Origin: Candidatus Thorarchaeota archaeon
GTDB taxonomy: Archaea; Asgardarchaeota; Thorarchaeia; Thorarchaeales; Thorarchaeaceae
DNA: 62,734 nt
Assembly (NCBI GenBank): GCA_004524565.1
Contig: SDNZ01000003.1
Span: 1 to 62,734 of the forward strand
Direction: 5' to 3'
Under the pieces are notes generated by a model. That model saw nothing but the letters and a program-made list of their open reading frames with translations. It was not told the DNA's origin and ran no database searches. The number at the start of each line of letters is the position of its first letter. Position 1 is the first letter of the stretch. The translations under genes and the position numbers were made by a program. Shown in pieces: positions 5,982 to 62,734 of the stretch.

Positions 5982-6087
5982 GAAGAAATAATAGTGCGTC
6001 TAACTAATCAACTTGATGGCTACGGAAGCGCATAACTCAAGGCTCATATGCAGAATAACTAAGATTAATCGTGGAGAGAGACCATCT

Positions 6088-7086: not shown

Positions 7087-7114
7087 GAATCGACAGACAG
7101 AAAAGTAGGACATA

Positions 7115-13500: not shown

Positions 13501-15350
13501 GAAGTTCGTTCCTCCTTTATTGCATCATGAGGGCAGACTGCTACACAGGCTCCACATTGTACACAGAGTTGATCAAGAATCACTGGATGACCTATTACCT
13601 TATCCCAACTGATAGCAGGGCATGCAAACTCTTGGACACAGATAAGACATCTATCTCCTTTACACAGATCTTTGTCAATTCTGAATGATACACCTTCAGT
13701 AGCAAGTTCTCTTCGGGCTACCTCAAGTCTACAGATACTGTCGAGGAGTAATACCTTCAGTCCTTCTTTGTTGATTGTTGAATGTAGAAGGTCAACTAAT
13801 TTGGGAATGTCAGTGGCGTCACACCTGGCAAAGAAATCAGGCTCTATGGCTTTGACAACGTTTTCTATCTTCACTCTATTCAGTCTGGATTCCTGATGGA
13901 CTGAACCTGGATGCGTCTGGAATCCGGTCATTGCAGTGGTCTCATTATCTAGAATTACAAAGGTAAGATTGGCACCTTTGTGCTTTGCATTGATGAGACC
14001 TGGGATGCATGCGTGAAAGAATGTGGAGTCACCTGCAACTGCTATCACCTTTGAATCAAAACCAAATTGCTCGAGTTGACCCAATCCTGTGGCAACTCCA
14101 ATTCCGGAACCCATTGCTTGCATTGTGGTCATTGCCCTATCATAGAACACTCCTAGTGAGTAGCAACCAATGTCTCCTGCAACGACCAGTTTGTCCTTAG
14201 TCCTCTTCCGTACCTTTCTCACAGCCCAGTAGAAATTGCGATGCGTGCAACCTGCACAGAAGGTAAGTGGACGTGGTATCAAAAGATCGGACTCTACCTG
14301 TTTGGTCTTTCCAAACTTTATTCCCCTTAGATTAGCAATAGCTTCTCGCATGAGGTCCGTTGTCATCTCACCAAAAGCTGGGATTGTTCCATTTCTTTTT
14401 CCGTGGAATTCTGGAATATTCCCCAACTCAACTGCAAGAGACCTTACTTCCTCTTCTATAAAAGGGTCAATCTCTTCAGAGAATAGAACTTGTTTAGCTT
14501 TACTTATTGCGGCAGATACTATCTTATTTGGTAGTGGATAGGTTGTCACAAGATTGAGAACACCAATATTCTCTGCATCCAATAGATTGATTGCATCCTC
14601 TGAGTATCGTCGACTTATCCCACTTGAAATGATTAAGACATCGATTTTCTTCTCAGATGGTAACGTATTCCATAATGATTCTTCGAACACCTCACTGATT
14701 TTATCCATCTTTTTGAGCAAGTCCCTATGTTTCAAATGCGGTGTTGGAACATTGAACAGATTTTCTACTAGTGGTTCAGCTTTCCAGGTTCTTTTCGGAA
14801 TTTCTCCCATTGTTACGAGCCCTCTTGAATGACTTAGTCGGGTTGTGCTACGAATAAGTACTGGTAACTCATAATCTTGGGAAATTTTCAAAGCATACGG
14901 TATGATGTCCTTTGCTTCTTGATAGGTGGATGGTTCAAGCAGAGGAATTTGAGCAGCTTTTGCATAGAATCGTGAATCCTGCTCATTGCTTGAGCTATGG
15001 CCTCGAGGATCATCACACACAACGATGACCAAACCTCCTTTGCCAGTCCCCGAGAGATTAAGATTCAGCAGAAAATCTGAGGCGACATTCAGACCTAGTG
15101 ATTTAATTGAGCATAGGGCTGGAACTCCTGCCCAACTTGCTCCAGCAGCAGCCTCCAATGCCACTTTTTCATTTACACTCCATTCTACATAGATGTCGTG
15201 CTCTTCAGCAATTCTTTGTAGTGTAGCAGCTATCTCTGTGGAGGGTGTGCCCGGGTAGGATGCACAGAAACCAATCCCTCCTTCTAATGCTCCTCTTGCA
15301 ATAGCTTCATTGCCGCTCATGATTGTTACGTGCTTTGAGGCCGTCATCAT
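13497..15350 (-). CDS. iorA: Indolepyruvate:ferredoxin oxidoreductase alpha subunit
   Basis: MSGNEAIARGA, YPGTPSTEI, EWSVNEKVALE, FCAGCTHR, GDIGCY, C-terminal ferredoxin. Start trimmed to ATG 15350. Confidence 0.93.
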   Translation of the reverse strand: MMTASKHVTIMSGNEAIARGALEGGIGFCASYPGTPSTEIAATLQRIAEEHDIYVEWSVNEKVALEAAAGASWAGVPALCSIKSLGLNVASDFLLNLNLSGTGKGGLVIVVCDDPRGHSSSNEQDSRFYAKAAQIPLLEPSTYQEAKDIIPYALKISQDYELPVLIRSTTRLSHSRGLVTMGEIPKRTWKAEPLVENLFNVPTPHLKHRDLLKKMDKISEVFEESLWNTLPSEKKIDVLIISSGISRRYSEDAINLLDAENIGVLNLVTTYPLPNKIVSAAISKAKQVLFSEEIDPFIEEEVRSLAVELGNIPEFHGKRNGTIPAFGEMTTDLMREAIANLRGIKFGKTKQVESDLLIPRPLTFCAGCTHRNFYWAVRKVRKRTKDKLVVAGDIGCYSLGVFYDRAMTTMQAMGSGIGVATGLGQLEQFGFDSKVIAVAGDSTFFHACIPGLINAKHKGANLTFVILDNETTAMTGFQTHPGSVHQESRLNRVKIENVVKAIEPDFFARCDATDIPKLVDLLHSTINKEGLKVLLLDSICRLEVARRELATEGVSFRIDKDLCKGDRCLICVQEFACPAISWDKVIGHPVILDQLCVQCGACVAVCPHDAIKEERTS

Positions 15351-46746: not shown

Positions 46747-48429
46747 ATGGGTGCAGATAGGAACTTGGAAGATATTCAGAAAGCTCAAGATAATTGGGAA
46801 AAAGAAACCCTTGGCTCACATCAGAAGCAACATCCTGACCGTCGAAAGGATTTCGTGACCACTTCAAGCCGACCAATAAAAGCAATCTATACTCCCCTCG
46901 ATGTACCAAACTTGGATTACTTGAAAGACCTAGGTTTTCCAAGTGAGTTTCCGTTTACTCGTGGAGTTCAACCGAGTATGTATCGTGGTCGTCTCTGGAC
47001 AATGCGTCAGTTTGCTGGAATGGGCTCTGCTGAGGAAACTAATCAACGATTCAAGTTTCTATTAGCCAACGGGCAGACAGGCCTCAGTGTTGCATTTCAT
47101 CTACCTACACTCTTTGCACGAGACTCTGACCATCCCTATTCGATGGGTGAAGTAGGAAAACTTGGAGTTGCTGTTGATAGTCTCAAAGATATGGAGATTC
47201 TCTTTGCAGGTATCCCAATAGACAAAGTAACTTCATCATTCACAATTAATGCACCTGCAGGAATTCTTCTTGCAATGTACATGGTAGCCGCTCAGAAACA
47301 AGGCATCTCTGCAGACAAAATAGGCGGAACCATTCAGAATGATATTTTGAAGGAATACATGGCTCAAAAGTCTTGGATATTAGCTCCTGCTCCATCTCTT
47401 CGTATCATCGGAGATATTATGGAATACGCTACTAAGAACATTCCCCGATGGAATACAATCTCAATCTCAGGCTACCATATACGCGAAGCTGGCTCTACTG
47501 CATCTCAAGAATTAGCCTTCACCCTCATCAATGGTATGGAGTATGTCCGGGTCGGAATGAGGAAAGGTCTGGATGTTGATGCTTTCGCCCCTAGATTATC
47601 TTTCTTCTTTAATGCACATAGCGATATCTTCGAAGAGGTTGCCAAGTACAGAGCAGCCCGACGCATCTGGGCTCGCGAGATGAAGGAGACCTTTGGTGCG
47701 AAGAATGAGCGGTCTCTCTGGATGCGATTTCATACTCAGACTGCTGGATGCTCACTGACAGCACAGCAACCAATGGTCAATGTTGTCAGAACAGCTTATC
47801 AAGCTCTAGCTGCGGTTCTTGGAGGAACTCAGTCACTGCATACAAACTCAATGGACGAAGCACTTTGTTTGCCAACGGAAGATGCTGTTAGAATTGCATT
47901 AAGGACACAACAGGTGCTTGCTCACGAGAGTGGTGCTGCTAATACTATTGACCCGTTAGCTGGTTCATACTATATTGAAAAACTTACAGATGATATGGAG
48001 AAAGAAGCCTACGAGTATTTTGACAAGGTTGAAGCTATGGGTGGAGTAGTCGAGGCTATTGAGAAAGGATTCTTCCAGCGTGAAATCTCTGAGGCGTCAT
48101 ATCGTTACCAGAAAGAGATTGAATCAGGAGAACGCACGATTGTTGGTGTAAACGATTATGTTCTTGATGGTGAGCAAATTACCATCCCTGTATTGAAGAT
48201 TGACCCGGAAGTAGAACGACGACAGGTAGAACGAACCCAGAAGATTAGAAGAGAACGAGATAACACCAAGGTCGATGCGGCATTAGCAGGTCTCCTGAAA
48301 GCATCAGAGAATGGTGATAACGTCATGCCTCACATTGTAAATGCTGTGAAAGAGTACGCAACAGTGGGTGAGATATTCCAAGTCTGGCGAGACCTTTGGG
48401 GCGAGTGGGACGAACCAAAGATCTTCTAA
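46747..48429 (+). CDS. icmA: AdoCbl-dependent acyl-CoA mutase large subunit, isobutyryl-CoA mutase type
   Basis: FPFTRG...[48 protein letters not shown]; no B12-binding domain. Confidence 0.8.
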
Positions 48430-48439
48430 TTCATAGATA

Positions 48440-50311
48440 TCAAGGATTCAGTTCCTCATTTCGGCGGCGAATTATAGTAACTGTGCAATAGATGATTGTT
48501 ACAGCTGATCCAATTCCTAAAGGAATACTGATGGCATACGACCAAATAAGCGGAAACGAAGTAGTATTTTGGTTTGATGTTGTAGCGGTACTTGTATTAG
48601 CAGAATCCACACTCGGGTACGCAGAATAATAGAAGAGAGTATTTCTCTCTATACTATAGTGTTCTCCAATCTTAAAATCCGAGAAGACGAAAGGACCGCA
48701 GTGTGTAGATGGTTCACTCGGATCTAAGAATGGATTCCAATTCATCCATTCCTCATATCCGATTCCTGTATCATTATTGAAGATGTGTCTTGGAATGATA
48801 CAGTGATATCCAACGTTACTGAAGTGCCAGTAAGATTCTGTATTGCACTCGATGACAGCTTGATATGGAGTTGGTGCAAAAGCAGCAGCTATCTCTCCAG
48901 CAAATGAAGGTGCAGTAAATGTGTCATTATAGATTCGCTCGACATCATAGTAGAAGCTAAATGCTACATCCTCTGCAGTTAGTGGGGTTCCATCACTCCA
49001 AGTAGCATTCTGAATAATATCAAAGGTGTATCTTCTATGACCTTCGGGAATGCTGGGATTATCGGTATGAGTTTCAATCATCATACTTTCAGCTAGATTC
49101 GGAACAGGTCGCATATCAGGTCCACAGTCATACAATGAAGGCCAAAGATTCTCAAGAATTGTCTTGGACCAATAGGAATTTGTGGTAAAGATATTGAATG
49201 TATCAGGCTCCCTATCTAGTCCAACTGGGACCGTGCCGCCAAAAGTCCCGTCAATTTTATGGATATTCCTCAAGGTCCAAGGACCGGATATGAGTCTACT
49301 ACGATCCTCAACATGACCCTCAAATTGATCGTTCCTATATGCTTGGGTGGACATTTTCACATAGACTACTAATTGTGGTACATTGTAATGGAGGATTTTT
49401 TGCATCTCAGATGCAGCCTCAAAGACCTCCTCGTAGGTTGCACCGTAGAGTAGTTGGTCTCGCCAGCTATCGTATGTTTCGTTAACAAAATTTGTTGGGT
49501 TTTCACCTTCAATTGATGCATATTCCGACCAATAGTCGTAAGCTAGCCAGTCTACGTCATTATCATTGAAAAAATCATAATTGTAGACCATATCATAATC
49601 TCCATGTTGGTCTAAGACTGACTCCAGACCACCTGCTTCTCTAGAAGCATTGATGTATAAGGAATGTAAAGCATCAACTGCTATCCGCGAAACTTTGTCA
49701 GCCCAACTATTACAAACGTTGGAAAATCTAATATCAAATTCTTCTCCGTTTGGTGCAAGACGATATCCCGTTGTACTGCTAATATTGAAACCAAGTTCAT
49801 CCAAAAGTTGATTCCCTATGTCTGATTGTTCAGTATAGTAATGCCACTCAAACTCATCTTCTACACACCAACCACTTTTTGGATGGATAAGCGAATCATG
49901 GTCTATCGACTCACCGCCAAGGAGGTCTTCGGCAGCTCTCCCCTTGTCAAAGGCAAAAGCAAAGGCTCGTCGGAGACCACTGATATTCAATGGATAATCA
50001 CGACAGTTGATGGTAATATATCCGTAATGATCACCTGCGGCGCTGTATATGTCGATATTTGGGTCTGACTCCAATACTGAGAGACTATCTCGGTCATTTC
50101 GAACAAAGGCCATTTCAAGCTCACCAGATTGAAGAGCAAGAACTTCCTGTTCATAGCTATTCATCACCCTGAAGATAACCTCATCAACGTATGGTCCTGT
50201 CTGAGGAGAATCTGACTCAAATACAGCGTTAACAATATGAACACTTGAGTATAAACTGAGTAGTATAATTCCTAATGCAAACACAGTTATTGCATAAAGG
50301 CGACTCCTCAA
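48440..50311 (-). CDS. Family-5 solute-binding protein, circularly permuted, C-terminal TM anchor (copy 1)
   Basis: GPYVDEVIF near the N-terminus; GGTV...PDTFN and WSDGTPLTAEDV in the C-terminal half; TM + RRR tail. Confidence 0.88.
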   Translation of the reverse strand: MRSRLYAITVFALGIILLSLYSSVHIVNAVFESDSPQTGPYVDEVIFRVMNSYEQEVLALQSGELEMAFVRNDRDSLSVLESDPNIDIYSAAGDHYGYITINCRDYPLNISGLRRAFAFAFDKGRAAEDLLGGESIDHDSLIHPKSGWCVEDEFEWHYYTEQSDIGNQLLDELGFNISSTTGYRLAPNGEEFDIRFSNVCNSWADKVSRIAVDALHSLYINASREAGGLESVLDQHGDYDMVYNYDFFNDNDVDWLAYDYWSEYASIEGENPTNFVNETYDSWRDQLLYGATYEEVFEAASEMQKILHYNVPQLVVYVKMSTQAYRNDQFEGHVEDRSRLISGPWTLRNIHKIDGTFGGTVPVGLDREPDTFNIFTTNSYWSKTILENLWPSLYDCGPDMRPVPNLAESMMIETHTDNPSIPEGHRRYTFDIIQNATWSDGTPLTAEDVAFSFYYDVERIYNDTFTAPSFAGEIAAAFAPTPYQAVIECNTESYWHFSNVGYHCIIPRHIFNNDTGIGYEEWMNWNPFLDPSEPSTHCGPFVFSDFKIGEHYSIERNTLFYYSAYPSVDSANTSTATTSNQNTTSFPLIWSYAISIPLGIGSAVTIIYCTVTIIRRRNEELNP

Positions 50312-50354
50312 TCTCCTTCACCAAAACCTCCAATTTCACCTATAGATTGTAGTT

Positions 50355-52244
50355 CTACTGATTTAACTCCTTTGTATGTAATAGAATGGATTCTTCTTTT
50401 CGCTTCCTGATTATGGCAACTGTGCAATAGATGATTACTATAGTTGACCCGGAAGCTAATGTAATACTCACAGCATATGACCAATTGAGTGGAAATGAAT
50501 CGTTTGTTTGATTGGTGGTGGAACTGGAATTTGTGGTTGTTGATGAGTCAATTGAGAATGTGGAATAATAGAAATTTGGATTTCTCTTAATAGTGTAGAA
50601 CTCCCCAACCTCGTAATTTGAGAAAGTGTATGGGCCACAGTTCACGTTAGGCTCTTCGGGATCAAATACTGGGTTCCAGGTATTCCAGCCCTGATAACCA
50701 ATACCTGTTTCATTGTTGAATATGTGTTGCGGGAGGATGTATGTGAATCCACAATAGTTGAAGTACCAATATGATTCTGTGTCGAATTCGATTATTACCC
50801 TGTATGTGGTAGGGGCATAAGCTGAAGTTAGATTTCCAATAAATCTGGGAATCGGAGTCATGTATTGGGCTCTTTCATAATCATAGGTGAACGTAAATAC
50901 AACATCTTCTGCAGTCAATGGTGTGCCATCACTCCAGGTGGCGTTATGAACAATATCGAATGTGAATCTGGTGTGCCCCAGAGGAACATTCTGATTATCC
51001 ATATGAGTTTCAATTACCATACTCTCAGCTAAATCTTGTACTGGCACCATATCTGGACCATAATCATACAATGAGGGATAGAGATTATCTACAATTGCCA
51101 GTGAATAATCAGATACCTGCAGGAAAATATTGAAACTCTCCGGTTCTTCCGCCATCCCAATAGTGACAGTACCTCCAAAGGTTCCATCGATCTTGTGGAT
51201 CTTTCTCATGGTCCAAGGACCTGTGATGTATTTTCTTAAATCTCCAACATGACCAGTGAACTGATCATTTCTGTATCTTTGCAGATAGGTGTCCTCGTAC
51301 ACGACAAGCCTTGGCACATTGTAGTGTAGAATCTCTTGCATAGCTTTTGCTGCTTCATAGACTTCCTCGTATGTTGTTCCATAGAGGAGTTGGTTTCGCC
51401 AGTTATCATAGGTGTCATTTTCGAATCTAGCGATATTCCAGTAGTAATCATCAGCATTTTCTGACCAATATTCATGTGCAAGCCAATCGATGTTATAATC
51501 ATCGAAATCTATGGTATACAGGATCATGTCATAGGCTCCTCCTGAAATATCTTCATAGAGGTATTCCTCTCTCCTTGCATCGATATGTAATGAATGAAGT
51601 GCATCAACTCCAATCTGTGCTGAACCTCCTGCAATTTCCGACGAAGCGCTTGAATAGAGAATCACTACCTCAAAGGGATCTCCATTTGGGGCAAGACGAA
51701 AGCCTGTTGATGGATTGATGGTGAAGTTTAGGTCATCTAGAATCTGGTTGCCAATATCTGATTGATTTGTATAGTAGTGCCAATCAAATTGATTCTCAAC
51801 ACACCAGCTATTGACAAATGGAACAAGGGAATCATGCTCCTGCGAGAATCCATCCATAATCTCCGCAGTGATTCGTGTCTTATCAAAGGCAAACGCAAAG
51901 GCACGTCTGAATCCACTGATGCTTAGAGGGTATCTCTGGCAGTTAATGGTGATTTGACCATATCCATTTCTCAAAGATGAGAATATGTCTATGTCGAGCT
52001 CCCAAATGTTTGGAAGATGGATTGGATGAAAGAAATCCAAGTCCATATCAATCTCTCCTGCTTGAAGAGCCAGGAATCGGTCATCTGGATGTTCGATGAT
52101 TTGGAAGATTATCTCATCTACATAGGGACCTGTCTGGAGGGAATCTGACTCATGCCATGAACTAGCAATCTGTATGCATCCAAGTGAATCTAGTAAGAGA
52201 ATCACTATTCCAAGAACCATTCCTACCTGAATCTGCTTCCTCAA
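50355..52244 (-). CDS. Family-5 solute-binding protein, permuted (copy 2)
   Basis: Same motif order as the other copies. Confidence 0.88.
   Translation of the reverse strand: MRKQIQVGMVLGIVILLLDSLGCIQIASSWHESDSLQTGPYVDEIIFQIIEHPDDRFLALQAGEIDMDLDFFHPIHLPNIWELDIDIFSSLRNGYGQITINCQRYPLSISGFRRAFAFAFDKTRITAEIMDGFSQEHDSLVPFVNSWCVENQFDWHYYTNQSDIGNQILDDLNFTINPSTGFRLAPNGDPFEVVILYSSASSEIAGGSAQIGVDALHSLHIDARREEYLYEDISGGAYDMILYTIDFDDYNIDWLAHEYWSENADDYYWNIARFENDTYDNWRNQLLYGTTYEEVYEAAKAMQEILHYNVPRLVVYEDTYLQRYRNDQFTGHVGDLRKYITGPWTMRKIHKIDGTFGGTVTIGMAEEPESFNIFLQVSDYSLAIVDNLYPSLYDYGPDMVPVQDLAESMVIETHMDNQNVPLGHTRFTFDIVHNATWSDGTPLTAEDVVFTFTYDYERAQYMTPIPRFIGNLTSAYAPTTYRVIIEFDTESYWYFNYCGFTYILPQHIFNNETGIGYQGWNTWNPVFDPEEPNVNCGPYTFSNYEVGEFYTIKRNPNFYYSTFSIDSSTTTNSSSTTNQTNDSFPLNWSYAVSITLASGSTIVIIYCTVAIIRKRKEESILLHTKELNQ
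50360..50374 (-). promoter_or_regulatory. BRE/TATA-like promoter of copy 1, overlapping the last codons of copy 2
   Basis: Minus strand CAAAGGAGTTAAATC; TATA 50-55 nt upstream of the start. Confidence 0.6.
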
Positions 52245-52291
52245 TCCCTTTCACCAAAACCTCCAATTTCATTTATGATTGGAATAATTAC

Positions 52292-52308
52292 GATTTAACT
52301 TCTTTGAA
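52292..52308 (-). promoter_or_regulatory. BRE/TATA-like promoter of copy 2
   Basis: TTCAAAGAAGTTAAATC; TATA 49-54 nt upstream of the start. Confidence 0.65.
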
Positions 52309-52387
52309 CCACAAAGTGTCGGTTTCTTGAATATTGCAGAACCATTATCCCCTTTGACTCCGAATTACCTAAATCATACATATCAGT

Positions 52388-54271
52388 TCAAGTGTTCGTC
52401 AGACTTCTTCGTTTCTGAAGTATCTGAACGCCGCAGTATAGAATGATAATACTTGAGAATCCTCCAACTGCAGACGCAATTGTTAGGGAAAAGGGAATCT
52501 GTGGCAGAGTTGTTTGATTTGTATTAGAAGTGGTTGGATTCAGACTTGTCGTTGTAGTAGTATTTTCGTAACTAGCTGCATAATGGAATAGGGGATTTCG
52601 TTCTATTTTATAGTAATTTCCTTCTTCAAAATCTGAAAAGACGAATGGTCCACAGGTCACATGTGGATCCTCCGACTCAAATATTGGATTCCATATATTC
52701 CATCCTTCATACCCGATTCCTCCAGTATTATTGAAGATGTGAATGGGTATAATGTATTCAAATGCAAAATCATTGAAGTTCCAGTATGACTCCGTACTAA
52801 ATTCAAGCACAACTCTGTATGGAGTTGGTGCATAGACTGCAGACAAATCAGAAAATGAACTTTCTATAGGATTGCCAAATGATCCACTCTCTATTGCATA
52901 TACGAAGGTGAAGACAACATCCTCGGCTGTTAAGGGGGCCCCGTCACTCCAAGTTGCATTCTGTAAGATATCCAGTGTAAATCGAGTGTGTCCATCTGGG
53001 ACTACATGGTTATCTGAATGGGTTTCTATCAGCATATTTTCCACTAGATCTGGGATTGGATTCATATCCGGACCATAATCATAGAGTGATGGCCAGAGCT
53101 CTTCTAGAATTACTTTCGATGAATCTGAGCTGGTCATATAGAAATTGAAACTGTCTGGGTCCATGCTGATTGCTATCGTAACTGTGCCACCAAAAGTACC
53201 ATCGAGTCTGTGAATTTTCCTTACTGTCCAAGGACCTGAGATGTTATTACTAATGTCTTCTATATGACCAGTAAAGACATCAGTTCTGTATACTTGTGTA
53301 TCTGTTCTCTCAAAGAGAACAAGTTCTGGAACATTATAGTGGAGTATCTTCTGCATCTCTGTTGCAGCTTCACACACTGCTTCATAGGACGTACCGTGGA
53401 GGAGCTGCTCAAGCCAAATATCATAGGAGTCATTGGCAAAGTTAGATGGATTCAGATAGGGTTCGTCTGAGAATTCAGACCCGAACTCATATCCAAGCCA
53501 TTGCACGTCATTTTCATCGAATCCCCTACCACGAATAATCATATCATAATCACCATGGTGGTCTAGCCTTGGAATATACTCTTCAAAGTTAGCTACTTTC
53601 ATAGATGCATTAATTCCAAGACTATGTAACGCATCAACTCCAATCTTTGCATGACCACCTGATTTCTCACAAGAGCATGCAGTGTATTCAATTGTGACAC
53701 TGAATGGAGAACCATCAGGTGCTACTCTGTATCCTGTTTCTGTATCGATTGTGAAATTCAAGTCATCCAGTATTTGATTCCCAATTTCCGGTAGAAATGA
53801 ATAGTAATGCCAATCAAACTGATCTTCAATACAAAATGCATTTGGTCGAGGTAGAAGTGAATCGTGTTCGATACCTGGTCCATGTGCCCATTCGTCTAAT
53901 ACTCTTGTCTTGTTGTATGCAAATGCAAAAGCTCGTCTAAAGCCGCTGATATTGAGAGGATATTTTGCACAATTGATTATGAGATTCGTATAACTATTTC
54001 TTGGAGTAGTATATGTGTCAATATCGGGGTCTTCATCCAACATCAGGTAGTACCAAGAGAGACTCGTGTCCAACTCAATCTCTCCCGCTTGAAGAGCTAA
54101 TAATCTCTCACTATCATAGGGTATAACCTTGAAGATAACCTCATCAACGTATGGTCCTGTTTGAAGAGGAGCTGACTCAACGAATCCATTAACTGCAGGA
54201 ATCCAACAAAGTGATACTACTAAGAACGCAGCTAATATTAATAGTGAAGAAGCAGAAAAGGACTCTCTCAT
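52388..54271 (-). CDS. Family-5 solute-binding protein, permuted (copy 3)
   Basis: Same motif order; carries the ACSC loop. Confidence 0.88.
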   Translation of the reverse strand: MRESFSASSLLILAAFLVVSLCWIPAVNGFVESAPLQTGPYVDEVIFKVIPYDSERLLALQAGEIELDTSLSWYYLMLDEDPDIDTYTTPRNSYTNLIINCAKYPLNISGFRRAFAFAYNKTRVLDEWAHGPGIEHDSLLPRPNAFCIEDQFDWHYYSFLPEIGNQILDDLNFTIDTETGYRVAPDGSPFSVTIEYTACSCEKSGGHAKIGVDALHSLGINASMKVANFEEYIPRLDHHGDYDMIIRGRGFDENDVQWLGYEFGSEFSDEPYLNPSNFANDSYDIWLEQLLHGTSYEAVCEAATEMQKILHYNVPELVLFERTDTQVYRTDVFTGHIEDISNNISGPWTVRKIHRLDGTFGGTVTIAISMDPDSFNFYMTSSDSSKVILEELWPSLYDYGPDMNPIPDLVENMLIETHSDNHVVPDGHTRFTLDILQNATWSDGAPLTAEDVVFTFVYAIESGSFGNPIESSFSDLSAVYAPTPYRVVLEFSTESYWNFNDFAFEYIIPIHIFNNTGGIGYEGWNIWNPIFESEDPHVTCGPFVFSDFEEGNYYKIERNPLFHYAASYENTTTTTSLNPTTSNTNQTTLPQIPFSLTIASAVGGFSSIIILYCGVQILQKRRSLTNT

Positions 54272-54318
54272 CCAAGCTCACCCCAATCTCCTGACAATAC
54301 ATGTATTGTATTATTGAT

Positions 54319-54335
54319 GATATAATCTCTTTGAA
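54319..54335 (-). promoter_or_regulatory. BRE/TATA-like promoter of copy 3
   Basis: TTCAAAGAGATTATATC; TATA 49-54 nt upstream. Confidence 0.65.
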
Positions 54336-54365
54336 TTCCTCACTTGATTTCAATTAATGGAATAT

Positions 54366-56255
54366 TCAAGTATTCCCACTGTTTTTGCGTTTTTGGATGA
54401 TTGATACCACACAATACACAATGACAATTCCTGAACCTGTACCTAACACTGTGCTAAACAATCTTAGCCAGCTCAACTCTGGAACTATCGTTTGATCTGT
54501 AGTAGTATTAGAAGTAGTAGGATTAGATGTGGTTGATGTTGTTGGTGCGTTTGGATTAGCTGCATAGTAAAACAGAGGATTCCTAACTAATTTGTAATAC
54601 TCCCCTAGTTCAAAATCAGAGAAAATGAATGGACCGCAGTTCACATTAGGTTCAGCAGGAACGAATACTGGATTCCAATGTTCCCAACGATCATACCCTA
54701 TCCCAGTATCATCATTGAAGATATGTTCTGGAATGATGTAATCATATGCAAAGTTGCTGAAGTGCCAAAAAGACTCAGTGTTGAACTCAATTACAGCTCT
54801 GTATGATGTTTGAGCATAGGCTGCCGCCAGATCACCAATATCAGAACCTGCGGGGTTGTTAAATAATGCACTTTCAAATGCATAGGTGAGGCTGAATGCT
54901 ACATCCTCTGCAGTTAGTGAGGTTCCATCACTCCACGTTGCATTCTGGATGATGTCAATAATGAAACGAGTGTGGCCGGTAGGAACTGCAGGATTATCAG
55001 AATGAGTTTCTATCAACATATTCTCGGTTAGATCCGGTATGGGTGTTAAGTCCGGTCCGTATTTATATAGTGATGGCCAGATATTTGCTATGACCATATC
55101 GGAGTATTGTGGATCTGTAACGTAGATATTGAAGCTGTCAGGGTCAGTGCTGATTGCAATGGGGACTGTGCCACCAAAGGTACCATCGAGCTTGCAAATC
55201 TTCCTCATGGTCCAGGGACCAGCAATATATCTGCCAAGGTCCTCAACATGGCCAGTGAACTGGTCGTTTCTGTACCCCTGTATGTAGGTATTCTCATAGA
55301 TTACAAGTATTGGAACGTTGTAGTGGAGGATCTTCTGCATCTCTGCTGCTGCTTCATAGATTTCCTCGTAGGTTGTACCATAGAGAAGTTGGTCCCTCCA
55401 GCTGTCGTAGGTATCATTTTGAAAATTGGAAGGATTCTCCCCGAAAACATCTGCATACTCTGACCAGTACTCGAATGCTAGCCAGTCAACATCATTGTTG
55501 AAAAAATTTACTGAATAGGTCATCATATCGTAGTCCCCGTGACTGTCTAACCTCCAACGCATATCGTTGAAGTCTGCTGCACGTGTCTGAGCGTTGATGT
55601 GCAGTGAGTGCAGTGCGTCTACTGCAATTATCGCGGTATAAGGAGTAATACCTGTTGAAGCATGTTCAATAATAATCTCAAACGGAGAACCATCTGGTGC
55701 CAACCTGAAACCTGTTTCTTCATCGATTTCGAAATTAAGATTATCAAGAATTTGGTTCCCAATATTTGCTTGGTTTGTGTAATAGTGCCAATCGAATTCA
55801 TCCTCAATACACCAACCGTTAGGTAAAGGGACTAGCGAATCGTGTTCGATTGAAAACCCATCAAAATAATATTCAGTTAAATTTGTCTTATCATACGCAA
55901 AAGCGAAAGCTCTTCTCAGGCCACTGATATTAAGTGGATACTTGGCGCAGTTTATAGTGATGTGACCATATCCATTTCGTGTAGCACTAAAGATGTCTAT
56001 ATCGGGATCTGCTGCCAATGTCGGAAGGTGAACTGGATCAAAAAAGCTATTGTCCATTTCAATCTCACCGGCTTGAAGAGCAAGAATCCTCTGATCCCGG
56101 TTAGCTATGACTTTGAATATGACCTCATCGATGTATGGTCCTGTCTGAAGAGAATCCGACTCCATGAAGCCACTGACTATTGGTGCTTCACTGATCGATG
56201 CAAATAGCAAAGCCGCAATTACCAGCCCTGTAGTAGCAAAAAAGGATCTCCTCAA
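54366..56255 (-). CDS. Family-5 solute-binding protein, permuted (copy 4)
   Basis: Same motif order. Confidence 0.88.
   Translation of the reverse strand: MRRSFFATTGLVIAALLFASISEAPIVSGFMESDSLQTGPYIDEVIFKVIANRDQRILALQAGEIEMDNSFFDPVHLPTLAADPDIDIFSATRNGYGHITINCAKYPLNISGLRRAFAFAYDKTNLTEYYFDGFSIEHDSLVPLPNGWCIEDEFDWHYYTNQANIGNQILDNLNFEIDEETGFRLAPDGSPFEIIIEHASTGITPYTAIIAVDALHSLHINAQTRAADFNDMRWRLDSHGDYDMMTYSVNFFNNDVDWLAFEYWSEYADVFGENPSNFQNDTYDSWRDQLLYGTTYEEIYEAAAEMQKILHYNVPILVIYENTYIQGYRNDQFTGHVEDLGRYIAGPWTMRKICKLDGTFGGTVPIAISTDPDSFNIYVTDPQYSDMVIANIWPSLYKYGPDLTPIPDLTENMLIETHSDNPAVPTGHTRFIIDIIQNATWSDGTSLTAEDVAFSLTYAFESALFNNPAGSDIGDLAAAYAQTSYRAVIEFNTESFWHFSNFAYDYIIPEHIFNDDTGIGYDRWEHWNPVFVPAEPNVNCGPFIFSDFELGEYYKLVRNPLFYYAANPNAPTTSTTSNPTTSNTTTDQTIVPELSWLRLFSTVLGTGSGIVIVYCVVSIIQKRKNSGNT
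56005..56096. repeat. 92-bp exact direct repeat shared with 57991..58082
   Basis: Base-by-base identity; both flanks diverge. Confidence 0.9.
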
Positions 56256-56302
56256 CCCAGTTCACCCTAACCTCTATGCACGTTGAATATTGTGAAAATG
56301 CT

Positions 56303-56317
56303 GATATAACATCTTTT
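56303..56317 (-). promoter_or_regulatory. BRE/TATA-like promoter of copy 4
   Basis: AAAAGATGTTATATC; TATA 49-54 nt upstream. Confidence 0.6.
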
Positions 56318-56351
56318 ACTCAAGCTCCTGATTCCAAACCTTCGAAAGATG

Positions 56352-58235
56352 TTAAGTTGTTTCAATGGTTCTGCGTTTTTGAATGATAGATACAGTGCAG
56401 TATACAATGACAATGAGTGAACTAGAGCCCAACGAAATACTGAATACACTTAGCAAATTCATCTCGGGAATTGTAGTTTGATTTGTTTGGGAAGTTGAAT
56501 TGGTTTCGGTCGTTGAAACAACTTGTGTTTCAGTAGTTAAAGCACTTGGAGTTGCTGCATAGTAAAAGAGTGGATTTCTCTCTAATCTGTAAAACTCTCC
56601 CGCTTCATAATCCGCGAATATGAATGGTCCACAGTTTACATGAGGCTCTGCTGGATCAAACACTGGGTTCCAAGTTTCCCAATCATCATAGCCTACTCCA
56701 GTGTCATCATTGAAGATATGTTCTGGAATGATGTAGTCATATGCAAAGTTGCTGAAGTGCCAGTATGACTCAGTATTGAACTCGATGACTGCCCTGAATG
56801 GAGTTGGTGCATATGCTGCTGCCAGGTCTCCAATATCAGTACCTGCGGGATTATCGTATAATGCACTTTCAAAAGCATAGGTAAGGCTGAATGCGACATC
56901 CTCTGCGGTGACTGGTTCACCATCACTCCAAGTTGCGTTCTGAATGATATCGAACGTAAATCGTGTGTGACCATCTGGAATTGCTGGATTGGTTGAATGG
57001 ATTTCGACTAGCATGCTCTCTGCAATGTCTGGGATTGGATTCATATCTGGCCCAAATTGATATAGTGAAGGCCAGAGATTAGCCAGAATAGACTCAGAGG
57101 ATTGTGAATCTGTGTTGTAGATGTTGAAGCTGTCAGGTTCTTCGCTGATAGCAATGGGAACTGTGCCACCAAATGTACCATCGATTTTCTGAATCTTCCT
57201 CATGGTCCAGGGACCTGAGATGTATCTTCCAAGATCTTCGACATGACCAGTGAACTGGTCGTTTCTGTACCCCTGCATGTAGGTGTTCTCATATACAACA
57301 AGTATTGGAACGTTGTAGTGAAGGATCTCCTGCATCTCAGCAACTGCCTCATAGACCTCCTCGTAGGTTGTACCGTAAAGGAGTCCGTCTCTGCAGGCAT
57401 CGTAGGAAGAATTAACAAAGTTGGTTGGGTTCTCGTACTCAACATCTGCGTACTCTGACCAGTAGTCATATGCAAGCCAGTCAACATCGTTGCTATAGAA
57501 GTTTGTAGCAAAGAAGACCATGTCGTAATCTCCATGGCTGTCTAGCCTTGACATGTATTCATTGAAATCTGATGAACGAGTCCTAGCATTGATATATAGA
57601 GAATCTAATGCTTCAACGCCTATCTGTGCTATGTATCCATTGTTTGTATACTCAATAATAATCTCAAATGGCGAACCATTCGGGGCCAATCTGAATCCTG
57701 TTTCTTCATCTATTACAAAATTCAAATCATCAAGAATTTGATTTCCAATTTCTGGTTGAGCAGTATAGTAATGAAAGTCGAATTGCTCTTCAACGCTCCA
57801 ACTATTTGCCCGAGGGACAAGTGAATCATGCTCGATAGAGAATCCGTACATTACTTCTTCAGTTACTTTTGTTTTATTAAACGCAAATGCGAAGGCTCTT
57901 CTCAGCCCACTGATATTGAGTGGATATTTTGCACAATTGATTGTGAGATGACCATACCCATTTCTCAAAGTACTGGCGATATCTATGTCAGGATCTGCTG
58001 CCAATGTCGGAAGGTGAACTGGATCAAAAAAGCTATTGTCCATTTCAATCTCACCGGCTTGAAGAGCAAGAATCCTCTGATCTTGGTTTGCAATTACCTT
58101 GAAGATGATCTCGTCAACATACGGTCCTGTTTGCAAAGCGCCTGATTCTGACCAACTACTAGTTTCAGGAATTCCACTAAATGTTACCATAAGAAGTGCT
58201 ACTGTGATTAGTATAGTATACCTGATTCTCCTCAA
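56352..58235 (-). CDS. Family-5 solute-binding protein, permuted (copy 5)
   Basis: Same motif order. Confidence 0.88.
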   Translation of the reverse strand: MRRIRYTILITVALLMVTFSGIPETSSWSESGALQTGPYVDEIIFKVIANQDQRILALQAGEIEMDNSFFDPVHLPTLAADPDIDIASTLRNGYGHLTINCAKYPLNISGLRRAFAFAFNKTKVTEEVMYGFSIEHDSLVPRANSWSVEEQFDFHYYTAQPEIGNQILDDLNFVIDEETGFRLAPNGSPFEIIIEYTNNGYIAQIGVEALDSLYINARTRSSDFNEYMSRLDSHGDYDMVFFATNFYSNDVDWLAYDYWSEYADVEYENPTNFVNSSYDACRDGLLYGTTYEEVYEAVAEMQEILHYNVPILVVYENTYMQGYRNDQFTGHVEDLGRYISGPWTMRKIQKIDGTFGGTVPIAISEEPDSFNIYNTDSQSSESILANLWPSLYQFGPDMNPIPDIAESMLVEIHSTNPAIPDGHTRFTFDIIQNATWSDGEPVTAEDVAFSLTYAFESALYDNPAGTDIGDLAAAYAPTPFRAVIEFNTESYWHFSNFAYDYIIPEHIFNDDTGVGYDDWETWNPVFDPAEPHVNCGPFIFADYEAGEFYRLERNPLFYYAATPSALTTETQVVSTTETNSTSQTNQTTIPEMNLLSVFSISLGSSSLIVIVYCTVSIIQKRRTIETT

Positions 58236-58282
58236 ATCAGCTCACCAAAACCTCCAATCCAAAACAATACTGTGTATTTGAT

Positions 58283-58299
58283 AATTTAACTTCTTGGAA
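58283..58299 (-). promoter_or_regulatory. BRE/TATA-like promoter of copy 5
   Basis: TTCCAAGAAGTTAAATT; TATA 49-54 nt upstream. Confidence 0.62.
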
Positions 58300-58331
58300 T
58301 CAAGCCGATGTAACTGGGACTATCAATGGAT

Positions 58332-60230
58332 CTATTGATTTCTGCGGGTCTGGATTATAGAAACCACACAGTATAGCATCACAATTCCTGAAACTGAACC
58401 TATTGATACACTGAATACTTGTGACCAATTCATTTCTAGCGGAGTCTGATTTGTAGCAGTAGTAGTTGTAGTAGTAGTTGCAGTAGTAGCAGTAGTAGTA
58501 GTTACGATAGTAGCAACACTTGAACTTGCTATATAGTGAAAGAGTGGGTTCCTTTCTAATTTGTAGAACTCACCAGCTTCGTAATCTGAGAAGATATACG
58601 GACCACAATTCACGTTAGGTTGTTCTGGATCATATACTGGATTCCAATCGAACCAACCCTCATACCCAATTCCATTTTCATCATTAAAGATGTGTTCTGG
58701 AATGATGTAGTCAAATGCAAAATTACTGAAGTGCCAGTATGATTCAGTGTTGAACTCAATAATTGCAGTGTATGGTGTCGGTGCATATGCCGCAGCCAAG
58801 TCCCACATATCAGCACCTGCTGGGTTTCCGTAACGTTCACTCTCATACGCATATGTGAGGCTGAATGCTACATCCTCTGCAGTTAATGGGGTTCCATCAC
58901 TCCATGTTGCGTTCTGGATTATATCAAAGGTGAAACGTGTATGACCATCAGGTACTGCAGGATTATCGCTGTGAGTTTCCGTCAAGACATTTTTTGCCAA
59001 ATCAGATACGGGTGTCAAATCTGGTCCATATTGATACAAGGATGGCCAGAGATTAGCAAGGAGTGCTTCAGAATAGCTAGAATCTGTATCATAGATATTG
59101 AAACTGTCAGGTTCTTCGGCGATTGCAATAGTGACTGTGCCACCAAATGTACCATCTAGTTTGTGAATTTTTCTTAAGGTCCAGGGACCAGAAATGTATC
59201 TACCAAGGTCTTCTACATGACCAGTGAACTGATCATTTCTATATCCTTGCATGTAGGTGTTCTCAAAGACAACAAGCCTGGGCACGTTGTACTGGAGAAT
59301 CTTCTGCATCTCAGAAGCAGCTTCATAGACTTCCTCATAGGTTGTACCGTAGAGGAGGGCGTCTCTCCAGCTGTCATAGGTTTCATTAGCAAAGTTCGTT
59401 GGGTTTTCATATTCTACATCTACATACTCCGACCAATATTCGTGTGCAAGCCAGTCAACATCATTATCATAGAAGTTTACCGCATACCAGACCATGTCGT
59501 AATCTCCATGGCTGTCTAGCCTTGAAATGTACTCGTTGAAGTCTGCTGCACGAGTTCTAGCATTGATGTGTAGAGAATGTAGCGCGTCTACGCCTACTTG
59601 CGGAAGGGCTCCAGCTAATTCACAACTACATGCTGCATATTCAATCGTGATATTAAACGGAGTACCATCCGGGGCTAATCTGAATCCAGTCCCTTCATCT
59701 ATTGTAAAATTCAAATCATCAAGGATCTGGTTACCGATTTCTGGTTGAGCGGTATAGTAATGCCAATCAAATTGGTCTTCGGCACACCAACCATTTGGCA
59801 GAGGAACTAGTGAATCATGCTCGATAGAGAATCCATCCATGATTTCTTCCGTGACTCTTGTTTTATCAAACGCAAATGCGAAGGCTCTTCTCAATCCACT
59901 GATATTGAGCGGATACTTAGCACAGTTGATGGTAAGATGACCATACCCGTTCCTGATTCCGTGATGTATTGAAATTTCCGGGTCTGCAGCCAGTGTAGCA
60001 AAGTGAACTGGGTCGAAAAAGCTATTGTCCATTTCTATCTCGCCAGATTGGAGAGCAAGAATCCTCTGGTCTTGGTTTGCAATTACCTTGAAGATGATCT
60101 CATCAACATAGGGGCCTCTTTGTATTGGATCTGAATCACTCCATGCATTAGCAATGTGAACACTTGAGTATGAACTGAGTATTATAACTACTATTGCAAG
60201 CATAGACATTGCATAAAGGCGACTCCTCAA
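58332..60230 (-). CDS. Family-5 solute-binding protein, permuted (copy 6)
   Basis: Same motif order; ACSC loop; longest Thr linker. Confidence 0.88.
   Translation of the reverse strand: MRSRLYAMSMLAIVVIILSSYSSVHIANAWSDSDPIQRGPYVDEIIFKVIANQDQRILALQSGEIEMDNSFFDPVHFATLAADPEISIHHGIRNGYGHLTINCAKYPLNISGLRRAFAFAFDKTRVTEEIMDGFSIEHDSLVPLPNGWCAEDQFDWHYYTAQPEIGNQILDDLNFTIDEGTGFRLAPDGTPFNITIEYAACSCELAGALPQVGVDALHSLHINARTRAADFNEYISRLDSHGDYDMVWYAVNFYDNDVDWLAHEYWSEYVDVEYENPTNFANETYDSWRDALLYGTTYEEVYEAASEMQKILQYNVPRLVVFENTYMQGYRNDQFTGHVEDLGRYISGPWTLRKIHKLDGTFGGTVTIAIAEEPDSFNIYDTDSSYSEALLANLWPSLYQYGPDLTPVSDLAKNVLTETHSDNPAVPDGHTRFTFDIIQNATWSDGTPLTAEDVAFSLTYAYESERYGNPAGADMWDLAAAYAPTPYTAIIEFNTESYWHFSNFAFDYIIPEHIFNDENGIGYEGWFDWNPVYDPEQPNVNCGPYIFSDYEAGEFYKLERNPLFHYIASSSVATIVTTTTATTATTTTTTTATNQTPLEMNWSQVFSVSIGSVSGIVMLYCVVSIIQTRRNQ
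58453..58503 (-). repeat. Imperfect (ACT)n trinucleotide tract encoding the poly-Thr stalk
   Basis: gtagcagtagtagttgtagtagtagttgcagtagtagcagtagtagtagtt on + encodes TTTTATTATTTTTTTAT. Confidence 0.8.
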
Positions 60231-60277
60231 TCTCCTTCACCAAACCTCCAATATCTATTAGAAATTAGAACTATCTT

Positions 60278-60294
60278 GATTTAACTTCTTTGAA
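60278..60294 (-). promoter_or_regulatory. BRE/TATA-like promoter of copy 6
   Basis: TTCAAAGAAGTTAAATC, identical to the copy-2 element; TATA 49-54 nt upstream. Confidence 0.65.
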
Positions 60295-60349
60295 TTTCGG
60301 TCATTTGCTATATTCAATGATATTCTAATGTTGAGATTTCAAGATCACT

Positions 60350-62215
60350 CTAGACCTTACGGTTCTGATGTCTAGCAATAACATAGACAATAACAACCAT
60401 CCCTGTACCTGTAATTACTGTTGTGCCAATCATTATTGGCCAGAACATATCTGAAGTCGTCGTCTGATTGTTTGCTGTCGATGTTGTGTTTGTCGTAGTG
60501 GTAGGAGGAGTAATTGCATATTGGAATTGAGTATTTCTGACCATTCTGTAGTAGTCATGTTCCACGTAATCTGAAAAGACGAAAGGACCACAGGTCACAT
60601 GAGGGTCATTTGGATCAAATACTGGATTCCATGTATTCCATCCCTCATACCCAATCCCACCAGAGTCATTGAAAATGTGAACTGGGATGATATATCGGTA
60701 AGCAAAATTGTTGAAGTGCCAGTATGATTCTGTGGTATATTCAACGACAACTTTGCTAAGCGTGGGTGAATAGACCGCTACCATATCTGAAGCCAGTTTA
60801 CCTGCTGGGTATCCAAAAGGTGCGCTTTCTTTTGCATAGATATAGGTGAACGCAATATCATCTGCTGTCAATGGGATACCATCGCTCCATGTCGCATTCT
60901 GAACGATGTCGACTGTGAAGCGGGTATGACCATCAGGAACAGCTGGATTATCAGAGTGAGTTTCAATCACTAAGTTGGTAGCAATATCGGGAATAGGTGT
61001 GATGTCCGGGCTATATTTGTAGAGAGATGGCCATATGTTCTCAAAGACAGCATTGCAACAGTATGCACTATATAATGAAAAGATGTTGAAAGTGCAAGGG
61101 TCTTGCTGAATAGCGACGCGAGCACTTCCACCGAAAGACCCATTGATGAGATGCATATTCCGCAATGTCCAAGGACCCGCCATGTATTGACCCATGTCTT
61201 CAACATGTCCTGTGAACTGATCATTTCTGTATGCCTGCATGAATGTCCTTTCAAAGGCAATAAGAACTGGGACATTGTAGTGTAGGATCTTCTGCATCTC
61301 TGCTGATGCTTCATAGACATCTTCATAGCTTGTACCATAGAGGAGTTGATCTATCCATATGTCAAATGTATCGTTAGCGAAGCTAGATGGATTTTCACCG
61401 TCGAAGTCTGCATATTCTGAACCAAAATCGTAAGCCAACCAATCAATATCGTTGTTGTAAAATTGTCTTGTAGAAAAAGCTATATCATAATCGCCATGGG
61501 TTATCAATCTGGTAACGTAATCATTGAAGTCTATTGCATGTTTTTCCGCATTGATACCCAGACTTCGAAGGGCATCAACTGCAAGTTGACTTGTTTCACT
61601 GTATCCATCACAAGAGCATGCTGGATATGCTATTTCAACACAGAATGGGGTACCATCTGGTGTTTCTCTAAATCCCGTTCCTGTATTGATTGTGAAGTTC
61701 AAATCATCCAGTATTTGATTCCCTACTTCTGGTTGTGCCGCATAGTAATTCCACGTGAATTGGTCTTCTATACACCACGGATTGCATTTCGGTAAAACAG
61801 AGTCGAGTTCAACACTGAAACCGTACAGTATTTCAGTTGCGCCTTTAGTCTTGTTGAATGCATAGGCGAAGGCTCTTCTAAATCCACTAATGTTGAGTGG
61901 ATATTTTGCACAGTTGATAACTAGCTGGTGATATCCATTATTCTCTGCTTGAAATATTGAGATATCTGGGTCTGCTTCAAATGTTTGAAGATGAACTGGA
62001 TCGAAAAAGCTCGCATCCAACTCAATATCTCCTGATTGGAGAGCAAGCGCTCGTTGATCTTGGTTTAGCACCTTGAAGATGACCTCGTCAATATATGGTC
62101 CTGTCACAAGTGATTCCGATTCAAAGAATCCACTAGTCACGATCACTTCACTCATCGATACTACAAGTAAAGCCGCAATCACCAGCAATGCAGTAGTTGG
62201 AAAGGGTCTCCTCAA
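60350..62215 (-). CDS. Family-5 solute-binding protein, permuted (copy 7)
   Basis: Same motif order; ACSC loop and AYCC. Confidence 0.88.
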   Translation of the reverse strand: MRRPFPTTALLVIAALLVVSMSEVIVTSGFFESESLVTGPYIDEVIFKVLNQDQRALALQSGDIELDASFFDPVHLQTFEADPDISIFQAENNGYHQLVINCAKYPLNISGFRRAFAYAFNKTKGATEILYGFSVELDSVLPKCNPWCIEDQFTWNYYAAQPEVGNQILDDLNFTINTGTGFRETPDGTPFCVEIAYPACSCDGYSETSQLAVDALRSLGINAEKHAIDFNDYVTRLITHGDYDIAFSTRQFYNNDIDWLAYDFGSEYADFDGENPSSFANDTFDIWIDQLLYGTSYEDVYEASAEMQKILHYNVPVLIAFERTFMQAYRNDQFTGHVEDMGQYMAGPWTLRNMHLINGSFGGSARVAIQQDPCTFNIFSLYSAYCCNAVFENIWPSLYKYSPDITPIPDIATNLVIETHSDNPAVPDGHTRFTVDIVQNATWSDGIPLTADDIAFTYIYAKESAPFGYPAGKLASDMVAVYSPTLSKVVVEYTTESYWHFNNFAYRYIIPVHIFNDSGGIGYEGWNTWNPVFDPNDPHVTCGPFVFSDYVEHDYYRMVRNTQFQYAITPPTTTTNTTSTANNQTTTSDMFWPIMIGTTVITGTGMVVIVYVIARHQNRKV

Positions 62216-62262
62216 TCTATCTCACCTTAACCTCCACGCTATTATACTAATGTCAAATGTTC

Positions 62263-62275
62263 ATATAACCTCTCT
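62263..62275 (-). promoter_or_regulatory. TATA-like promoter of copy 7
   Basis: AGAGAGGTTATAT; TATA 48-53 nt upstream. Confidence 0.55.
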
Positions 62276-62310
62276 CAATTAATCATATGATTCCAATAAA
62301 TCGAAATATA

Positions 62311-62734
62311 TCATGGGCTCTCAGTGCTCTTGCGTTTTTGAATAATAGATACAGTGCAATATACAATAACAATTCCCGTGCCTGTAATTACAGCAGTAAA
62401 AGCGATTGTTGGCAATAATGAATTTGGTTGTGAAGTCTGATTTGTTGCACTTGAAGTAGTTGTCAGGTCCTCCACGACTCTATAATGAAACAATGGATTC
62501 TTTTCCAATGCGTAATAATCCCCTTCTACATACTCTTTGAAAATAAACGGACCACAATTCACGTTAGGTTCAGAAGAATTGTACACAGGATTCCAAGTGT
62601 CCCATCCATCATATCCAATGCCAGTACTATCATTGAAAATATGTAAGGGAATGACATAATCAAATGCGAAATCAATGAAATGCCAATACGATTCCGATGA
62701 AAATTCAACAACGCAAGTATAAGTTGAGAGCGCA
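62311..62734 (-). CDS. Family-5 solute-binding protein (copy 8, 5' part off the window)
   Basis: The frame stays open to the window edge: ...EFSSESYWHFIDFAFDYVIPLHIFND...NCGPFIF...KNPLFHY, linker, TM helix. Confidence 0.88.
   Translation of the reverse strand, partial: ALSTYTCVVEFSSESYWHFIDFAFDYVIPLHIFNDSTGIGYDGWDTWNPVYNSSEPNVNCGPFIFKEYVEGDYYALEKNPLFHYRVVEDLTTTSSATNQTSQPNSLLPTIAFTAVITGTGIVIVYCTVSIIQKRKSTESP

Follow-up and report, generated by a model that had tools for sequence, protein, structure and literature searches.

Substrate-binding proteins (SBPs) of cluster C are among the best-studied receptors of ATP-binding cassette (ABC) transport, and the solved structures found in this work all follow one chain order. 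The Opp-class sugar binders of Sulfolobus solfataricus and Pyrococcus carry a Ser/Thr linker and a C-terminal transmembrane segment and have the canonical chain order. Importers are also known in which several SBPs are encoded apart from the permease, as with the OppA paralogues of Borrelia burgdorferi, MppA acting with OppBCDF in Escherichia coli, and HisJ/ArgT. A circularly permuted ABC binding protein has been described in Treponema pallidum, the glucose-binding protein TpMglB-2 (Tp0684) of the 'Type Ic / Cluster Bc' (PMC4990184). Members of Cluster Bc are tethered, and tethering was raised by the authors as a possible driver (PMC4990184). Here, we analysed a stretch of 62,734 nucleotides from a Candidatus Thorarchaeota archaeon (the window), which is the entire contig C173 of a 3.13 Mb genome assembly (218 contigs, 86% complete). 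Positions 48440-62734 of the window hold a tandem array of SBP genes belonging to family 5 (OppA-DppA-NikA, PF00496), whose two halves stand in swapped order.

On the minus strand, the array comprises seven complete open reading frames (ORFs) of 621-632 aa; of an eighth, only the final 140 codons are present (Table 1). This agrees with the count of at least eight copies given in an earlier note on this DNA. Copy 8 probably starts on contig C19 of the same genome, the end of which (13507-14748, plus strand) holds the first 414 codons of a permuted copy with the same promoter-like and leader boxes as the array. In two sister genomes, a mutase gene of 90% identity is followed by three or four permuted SBP genes and then by orthologues of the C19 genes. 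Given this synteny, C19 most likely adjoins the end of the window, which would place a beta-helix surface protein at one boundary of the array and the mutase gene at the other. The opposite-strand ORFs within the array genes are short (100-122 aa) and were taken as chance frames.

The chain order was determined by profile comparison. PF00496 matched the three array copies tested with 129-139 bits (cut-off 32.4), in two stretches each, with profile positions 145-362 of 368 aligned to protein residues 39-265. A scan of the whole genome placed profile ~144-363 upstream of profile ~2-170 in every array copy. The proteins therefore pass the curated threshold of the family, and the collinear chain order of cluster C is not observed in them. 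A hidden Markov model (HMM) of 40 members gave the same swapped order against a canonical SBP of the same genome (C2:774-2564), where HMM 386-565 corresponds to residues 66-230 and HMM 36-332 to residues 237-531. In Bacillus subtilis AppA (1XOC), residues 20-207 were aligned to profile 362-564 and residues 210-418 to profile 38-250; the blocks are likewise swapped relative to DppA and TM1223. As the two AppA blocks abut (…207, 210…), the chain is cut between AppA 207 and 210 without loss of residues. Going by the domain boundaries of OppA and DppA, the cut presumably falls within lobe I, so that neither hinge crossing would be broken. These results bear out the motif order that the earlier note had read as a circular permutation, with the second half first, then a linker and then the canonical start, and the matches of each half to the Pfam profile and the family HMM are swapped, not collinear.

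The old C- and N-termini are joined by a linker of about 20 residues. Residues W348, T349, R351, G361 and G362 of the junction region are invariant in 40 sequences, and the array copies are conserved better in the linker (0.67-0.74) than in many other parts. The linker is thus no floppy spacer. Because the genes lie in tandem and the assembly breaks fall within copies, an artefact of assembly or gene calling might be considered, in which ORFs run from the middle of one canonical gene to the middle of the next. This is refuted by the boundaries of the genes themselves, given that each ORF is stop-bounded and extends from a signal peptide to a C-terminal stalk, membrane helix and basic tail. Solitary copies (C8, C158 and C123) also show the same order, as do 272 proteins from many independent assemblies, and the junction linker is conserved, which leaves the artefact with a negligible probability.

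A structural model of copy 4 was obtained with AlphaFold2 (mean pLDDT 77.8, pTM 0.72), in which the signal region, linker and stalk were weak. A Foldseek search of this model against the PDB returned only cluster C SBPs (probability 1.0), with alignments of up to ~350 columns, or about half the length, and TM scores of 0.32-0.42; typical alignments spanned ~310 columns (TM 0.36-0.42). Such partial alignment would be the behaviour expected of a sequential aligner facing a permutant. No PDB chain was collinear with copy 4 over its full length in this search and, since the matches were only partial, the modelled topology has no solved counterpart among them.

The termini of the array proteins are uniform. 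An N-terminal hydrophobic signal is present in every complete copy. At the other end, a stalk of 27-41 aa (21 aa in the partial copy 8) contains 41-52% Ser+Thr and 1-4 N-X-S/T sequons per copy, and may be glycosylated. In all eight copies, a hydrophobic helix and a tail containing 2-5 Lys/Arg complete the C-terminus, so that the Thr/Ser stalk with sequons, membrane helix and basic tail noted previously at the new C-terminus are seen throughout. The C-terminus of a canonical family-5 SBP of the same genome, on C2, likewise consists of such a stalk and helix; therefore, this style of anchoring is not special to the permuted form.

To describe the distribution of the permuted form, 342 proteins were collected, of which 272 were collinear with the permuted model, 33 were canonical and 36 were partial. 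Copy 4 matched 199 clusters at E <= 1e-30 when compared with 1.8 billion representative proteins, and the best 150 of these 199, down to 27% identity, were all collinear with it. Among 400 Asgard genomes, 108 had a match at E <= 1e-20, including 76 of the 86 genomes in the same family. Almost every Thorarchaeota genome that was covered thus carries the permuted form. Matches of 26-30% identity in three distant Asgard genera were still collinear across the junction, and the named members that were looked up all belonged to Thor-, Loki-, Hod- or Odinarchaeota. The earlier note had suggested that the repertoire may be lineage-specific, which in the narrow sense does not hold, as the family spans Asgard lineages. 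The profile search showed a clear gap, with permuted matches at 546 bits or more and the best canonical one, a Sulfolobales protein (P0297), at 281 bits. Canonical relatives were re-ordered by script for the tree alignment only. In the resulting tree, 79 permuted representatives formed one side of a branch with support of 99, which fits a single origin of the permuted form within the sample. One further protein, P0268 (945 aa, from one 4.9-kb metagenome contig), has model positions 186-567 first and then 37-183, 17 residues apart, and represents either a second permutation or a chimeric assembly.

An origin of the permutation by tandem duplication is plausible, although a 1.5-copy intermediate of this route was not found among the proteins. 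Two metagenomic proteins contain more than one SBP module. P0167 (2,427 aa) has two permuted modules in tandem, and P0121 (4,308 aa) has a permuted, a canonical-order (Pfam profile 1-364 at residues 1578-2013) and a permuted module, together with Big_7/PKD repeats. Being in-frame SBP-SBP fusions, they indicate that the raw material for the duplication route exists in the clade.

Transporter genes were searched for in the window and in the genome. No Opp-type permease or ATPase is encoded in the array (48440-62734). The sole PF00528 match in the window (7424-7936) lies 40 kb from the array and is part of a transporter of the NMT1/TauA (nitrate/sulfonate/bicarbonate) type. This is a complete small ABC importer on the minus strand (6013-8735), unrelated to the array, with genes for a binding protein (6013-7086), a permease (7115-7966) and an ATPase (7938-8735). 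Sister genomes also gave no transporter beyond the position of the contig end, the array being flanked there by the mutase gene and non-transporter genes.

An Opp-type operon with a permuted SBP was found on another contig of the genome, C123. On one strand it encodes an OppC-type permease, two permeases of the OppB type and a permuted SBP, with a hairpin after the SBP gene, and the genes of the OppD- and OppF-type ATPases are divergent from these; Pfam recognised OppC_N, BPD_transp_1 and oligo_HPY in the operon. The OppC-type permease (4647-6206, minus strand) has 520 aa and an extracytoplasmic insert of ~250 aa between the OppC_N helix and the core. The tandem OppB-type genes (2228-3313 and 3407-4477, minus strand) are near-identical, and a single one is present in the orthologous operon of G362. 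Operons of this type with a permuted SBP occur in four relatives (G362, G355, G353 and G313). A conserved 1148-aa protein beside the C123 operon showed a weak GCS2 match only and gave no clue to the ligand. The genome has ~12 permuted SBP genes versus two canonical ones, so that the permuted form is the predominant family-5 type in this Thorarchaeota genome. The two canonical SBPs accompany two other Opp-type transporters (C100; C2 plus C171). The Opp-type transporter at the end of C171 was considered as a partner of a permuted SBP and rejected, as it more likely continues into C2, which carries a canonical SBP and the start of a permease.

OppBCDF-type genes thus accompany the permuted paralogue on C123 and, in four relatives, the orthologues of this paralogue, and none accompany the eight array genes. 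The array copies share 52-68% identity with the operon copy and have the same anchor and core conservation. The absence of a transporter stated in the earlier note holds for the 14-kb array but not for the genome, and the cognate Opp/Dpp permease that seemed to be missing has a candidate in the conserved C123 operon. Nor does a standard permease operon appear to lie just beyond the window, judging from the boundaries of the sister arrays. Since the C123 operon includes a permuted SBP and is conserved in relatives, the array SBPs are probably ABC receptors of the ordinary kind whose partners are not encoded next to them, and not a transporter-independent system.

We therefore favour, as the probable explanation, that the array proteins are membrane-tethered cluster C SBPs, naturally permuted, which serve an Opp importer of the C123 type. 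The chain starts at the equivalent of AppA ~210, continues through the second lobe to the canonical C-terminus, passes through the conserved linker to the canonical N-terminus and ends at canonical ~207. A glycosylatable Ser/Thr stalk and membrane helix tether the protein to the outer cell face, where it would act as an ordinary Venus-flytrap receptor and hand its ligands to the C123 importer (OppC with the large external insert, two OppB, OppD and OppF). As the SBP of this importer is itself a permuted family member, the ~12 permuted SBPs would most simply serve this transporter, and the array would supply extra specificities for one shared translocator. The ligands would most likely be oligopeptides, with oligosaccharides possible.

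The permuted module was also observed outside transporter operons. Four giant relatives from metagenomes (P0152, P0159, P0162 and P0156; 1,627-2,586 aa) have an N-terminal permuted module followed by a Peptidase_S8 subtilase. In the two longest of these fusions, a PKD-like match and a stalk and anchor of the same kind come in addition; P0152 has its stalk and membrane anchor at the very end. In the present genome, a diverged permuted copy that runs off a contig end (C102:80685-81980, plus strand) is the copy closest to P0152 (46%), and an 830-aa ORF at another contig end (C178:17008-19497, minus strand) corresponds to P0152 residues 1310-2048. A P0152-like fusion is therefore probably present in this genome, split by assembly gaps.

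Several observations weigh against an importer-bound role as described. Only family membership connects the array proteins to the C123 transporter; the linker was poorly modelled in copy 4 (pLDDT 55-61); the best single-sequence structure matches are oligosaccharide binders (Thermotoga maritima TM1223/TM1226 and the Vibrio chitooligosaccharide-binding protein); and the module, being fused to proteases and Ig-like repeats, can also work outside a transporter context. In a different explanation, the array proteins capture or sense substrates at the cell surface and do not feed an ABC importer; they might hold substrates for extracellular proteases or act in adhesion or signalling, the fold having been co-opted as a general binding module. 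This would account for the lack of transporter genes beside the array, beside its versions in sister species and beside a six-copy array in one Asgard genome of a distant family, where no Opp-type permease gene lies alongside. It would also account for the N-terminal position of the module in surface proteins of 1,600-2,600 aa with subtilase and PKD-like domains, for its presence in the multi-SBP giants, and for ~12 permuted SBP genes facing a single transporter operon with a permuted SBP. We nevertheless consider it unlikely, given that a permuted family member is the SBP of a complete, conserved Opp-type operon, that the array copies share the anchor and core conservation of this SBP, and that several SBPs encoded apart from one ABC translocator are common.

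With respect to the ligands of the proposed importer receptors, the subtilase fusions hint at peptides, and AppA, a nonapeptide binder, ranks first among solved structures in the profile search. Asgard genome surveys have reported Opp/Dpp systems together with peptidases (PMC8072921). By our estimate, peptides are somewhat more likely ligands than oligosaccharides. Receptors for oligosaccharides, in parallel to sugar binders of the 'Opp-family' type known from Thermotoga, Pyrococcus and Sulfolobus, are a tentative alternative. The best single-sequence structure matches point in this direction, being binders of mannosides (4PFT/1VR5, 4PFU) and of chitooligosaccharides (7EBM, 6LZT, 1ZTY), and so does the Sulfolobales label of the closest canonical relative (P0297). 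The region aligned to the 'GW..D' amine-binding motif of OppA also resembles TM1223 more by eye, a resemblance that is weak and too uncertain to use. The repeated fusion of the module to subtilases and the first rank of the peptide binder AppA argue against sugars, and no glycoside hydrolase was seen beside the operon or the array.

The array copies are pairwise 46-73% identical and are old, diversified paralogues, in agreement with the diversified repertoire proposed earlier. The most variable patches are located at residues 191-210, 221-250, 371-390 and 461-480. A Cys-x-Cys motif (ACSCE/ACSCD) occurs at residues ~191-210 in copies 3, 6 and 7 and is not found in the other copies. The copy number varies within one genus: the mutase locus has no permuted SBP gene in G355 (C66), three in G348 (C296), four in G352 (C234) and at least eight here. 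At the uvrC/uvrA locus, one permuted copy is found here (C8:47008-49005) and three in G355. The paralogue tree is star-like with weak support, and copies tend to group by species rather than by position.

Each array copy appears to form its own cassette, with a promoter-like box and a Shine-Dalgarno leader. The leader box GGAGGTTnnGGTGA had six matches versus 0.26 expected, all ahead of array genes, and AAGArrTTAwATC had seven matches versus 1.7 expected, six of the seven ahead of array genes. The latter boxes may represent archaeal TATA/BRE elements. Six of the seven complete array genes start with TTG. Between copies 1 and 2 the intergenic gap is only 43 nt, and the promoter-like box of copy 1 (AAGGAGTTAAATC) overlaps the last codons of copy 2, just upstream of its stop codon (window 50355-50372).

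Table 1. Location of the array genes, the parts of copy 4, the upstream boxes and the downstream boundary gene in the window.
Feature	Position	Strand	Basis
Copy 1, permuted family-5 SBP, 623 aa; final array gene, convergent with the mutase gene	48440..50311	-	ORF; PF00496 135.5 bits, protein 39-263 = profile 145-363; genome scan, halves swapped
Copy 2, permuted family-5 SBP, 629 aa	50355..52244	-	ORF; genome scan, profile 145-364 (51456-52130) upstream of profile 6-144 (50562-51032)
Copy 3, permuted family-5 SBP, 627 aa; sole array copy starting with ATG	52388..54271	-	ORF; genome scan
Copy 4, permuted family-5 SBP, 629 aa; reference for searches and structure model	54366..56255	-	ORF; Pfam; AlphaFold2; Foldseek
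Copy 5, permuted family-5 SBP, 627 aa; 72% identity to copy 4	56352..58235	-	ORF; genome scan
Copy 6, permuted family-5 SBP, 632 aa	58332..60230	-	ORF; genome scan
Copy 7, permuted family-5 SBP, 621 aa	60350..62215	-	ORF; PF00496 139 bits; genome scan
Copy 8, C-terminal 140 codons only, cut by contig end	62311..62734	-	ORF; synteny
Copy 4, signal peptide region, ~residues 1-30	56166..56255	-	Hydrophobic window residues 4-22; model helix 2-21, then low-confidence segment
Copy 4, residues ~36-343, canonical second part (AppA ~210 to C-terminus; DppA 207-494)	55227..56150	-	HMM and structure-sequence alignments
Copy 4, linker, residues ~344-361, old C-terminus to old N-terminus (…GHVEDLGRYIAGPWTMRKICKLDGTF…)	55173..55226	-	Between the two HMM blocks
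Copy 4, residues ~362-565, canonical first part (AppA 20-207)	54561..55172	-	HMM and structure-sequence alignments
Copy 4, Ser/Thr-rich stalk with N-X-S/T sequon, 37 aa, 41% Ser+Thr	54453..54560	-	Composition; model pLDDT < 50 for 569-600
Copy 4, C-terminal membrane helix and basic tail (QKRKNSGNT)	54369..54452	-	Hydrophobicity; model helix 596-627
Leader boxes GGAGGTTnnGGTGA, Shine-Dalgarno-like, 7-25 nt ahead of start codons	50318-50331, 52251-52264, 54278-54291, 56262-56275, 58242-58255, 62222-62235	-	
Promoter-like boxes AAGArrTTAwATC, ~45-60 nt ahead of starts	50360-50372, 52292-52304, 54319-54331, 56303-56315, 58283-58295, 60278-60290	-	
Methylmalonyl-CoA-mutase-family gene, conserved downstream boundary of the array	46747..48429	+	PF01642 742 bits; arrays in G352 and G348 are flanked by an orthologue of 90% identity

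Among the neighbouring genes, C19:11162-13441 (plus strand) encodes a 760-aa right-handed beta-helix (NosD-like) protein, placed directly upstream of the array by synteny, which has a Ser/Thr stalk and a C-terminal membrane anchor like the SBPs. Further proteins of the right-handed beta-helix (NosD-like) type are encoded in the window at 2205-3599 and 3684-4877 (minus strand). A 775-aa protein (8940-11267, plus strand) combines an N-terminal FG-GAP/BBS-like beta-propeller with a C-terminal Ras-family GTPase (PF00071, 161 bits), a eukaryote-like signature typical of Asgard archaea.

Taken together, the receptor arrays, the changes in copy number and the protease fusions point to organic-matter scavenging as a fast-evolving trait of sediment Asgard archaea. 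More speculatively, the main peptide-receptor family of Asgard archaea might have been re-threaded once, early in their evolution, and the permuted module might since have been used as a portable surface 'capture' unit: as the receptor of a dedicated Opp-type importer, as promoter-equipped cassettes gained and lost between sister species, and as the part of giant anchored subtilases that holds the substrate. Proteolysis outside the cell, capture and uptake would then be coupled in one system, specific to these archaeal relatives of eukaryotes. If this were true, the gain and loss of cassettes would retune what the cell scavenges.

The existing annotation does not reveal the permuted form. Public records name the family members plainly as 'ABC transporter substrate-binding protein', and domain tables list only 'PF00496'. 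Such labels hide the permutation, which matters for annotation. No NCBIfam model reached its cut-off for the array proteins, the best being Opp4A with 59.9 bits versus 650. A described permuted OppA or family-5 protein was not found in the literature, where TpMglB-2 was the sole natural precedent of a permuted ABC SBP that we could find (PMC4990184). Neither the papers nor the curated family models and solved structures searched yielded a permuted family-5 topology, while the cluster C homology itself is known. A large, naturally rotated family lends itself to testing the influence of chain connectivity on folding, hinge motion and permease docking, and the array genes are concrete proteins for expression and ligand screening.

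In comparison with known systems, the array proteins resemble the canonical cluster C (PF00496) SBPs, including AppA (1XOC), E. coli DppA (1DPP/1DPE, 8Z1Y), TM1223 (1VR5/4PFT) and the Vibrio protein (7EBM), in sequence over both halves and probably also in fold. They differ from these in that the chain is rotated, with canonical ~210 to the end first, then the linker, and then ~20-207. TpMglB-2 is, like the array proteins, a naturally permuted ABC binding protein; it keeps the two-lobe fold and its transporter role (PMC4990184), as the array proteins probably do. However, TpMglB-2 is a bacterial cluster B (MglB-type) protein and is not arrayed, and none of the sequence and fold matches of the array proteins is to the cluster B (MglB/ribose-binding) fold, all being to cluster C. 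The permutation of TpMglB-2 is thus an independent event, not homologous to that of the array family, and serves as an analogy only. Similar to the multi-SBP importers of Borrelia and E. coli, several diverged receptors probably share one translocator; unlike those, the array receptors are permuted, C-terminally anchored and equipped with their own promoter-like cassettes, and their copy number varies between sister species. With the anchored Opp-class binders of other archaea they share the signal peptide, the Ser/Thr-rich linker and the C-terminal membrane helix, and it is the order of the chain that sets them apart.

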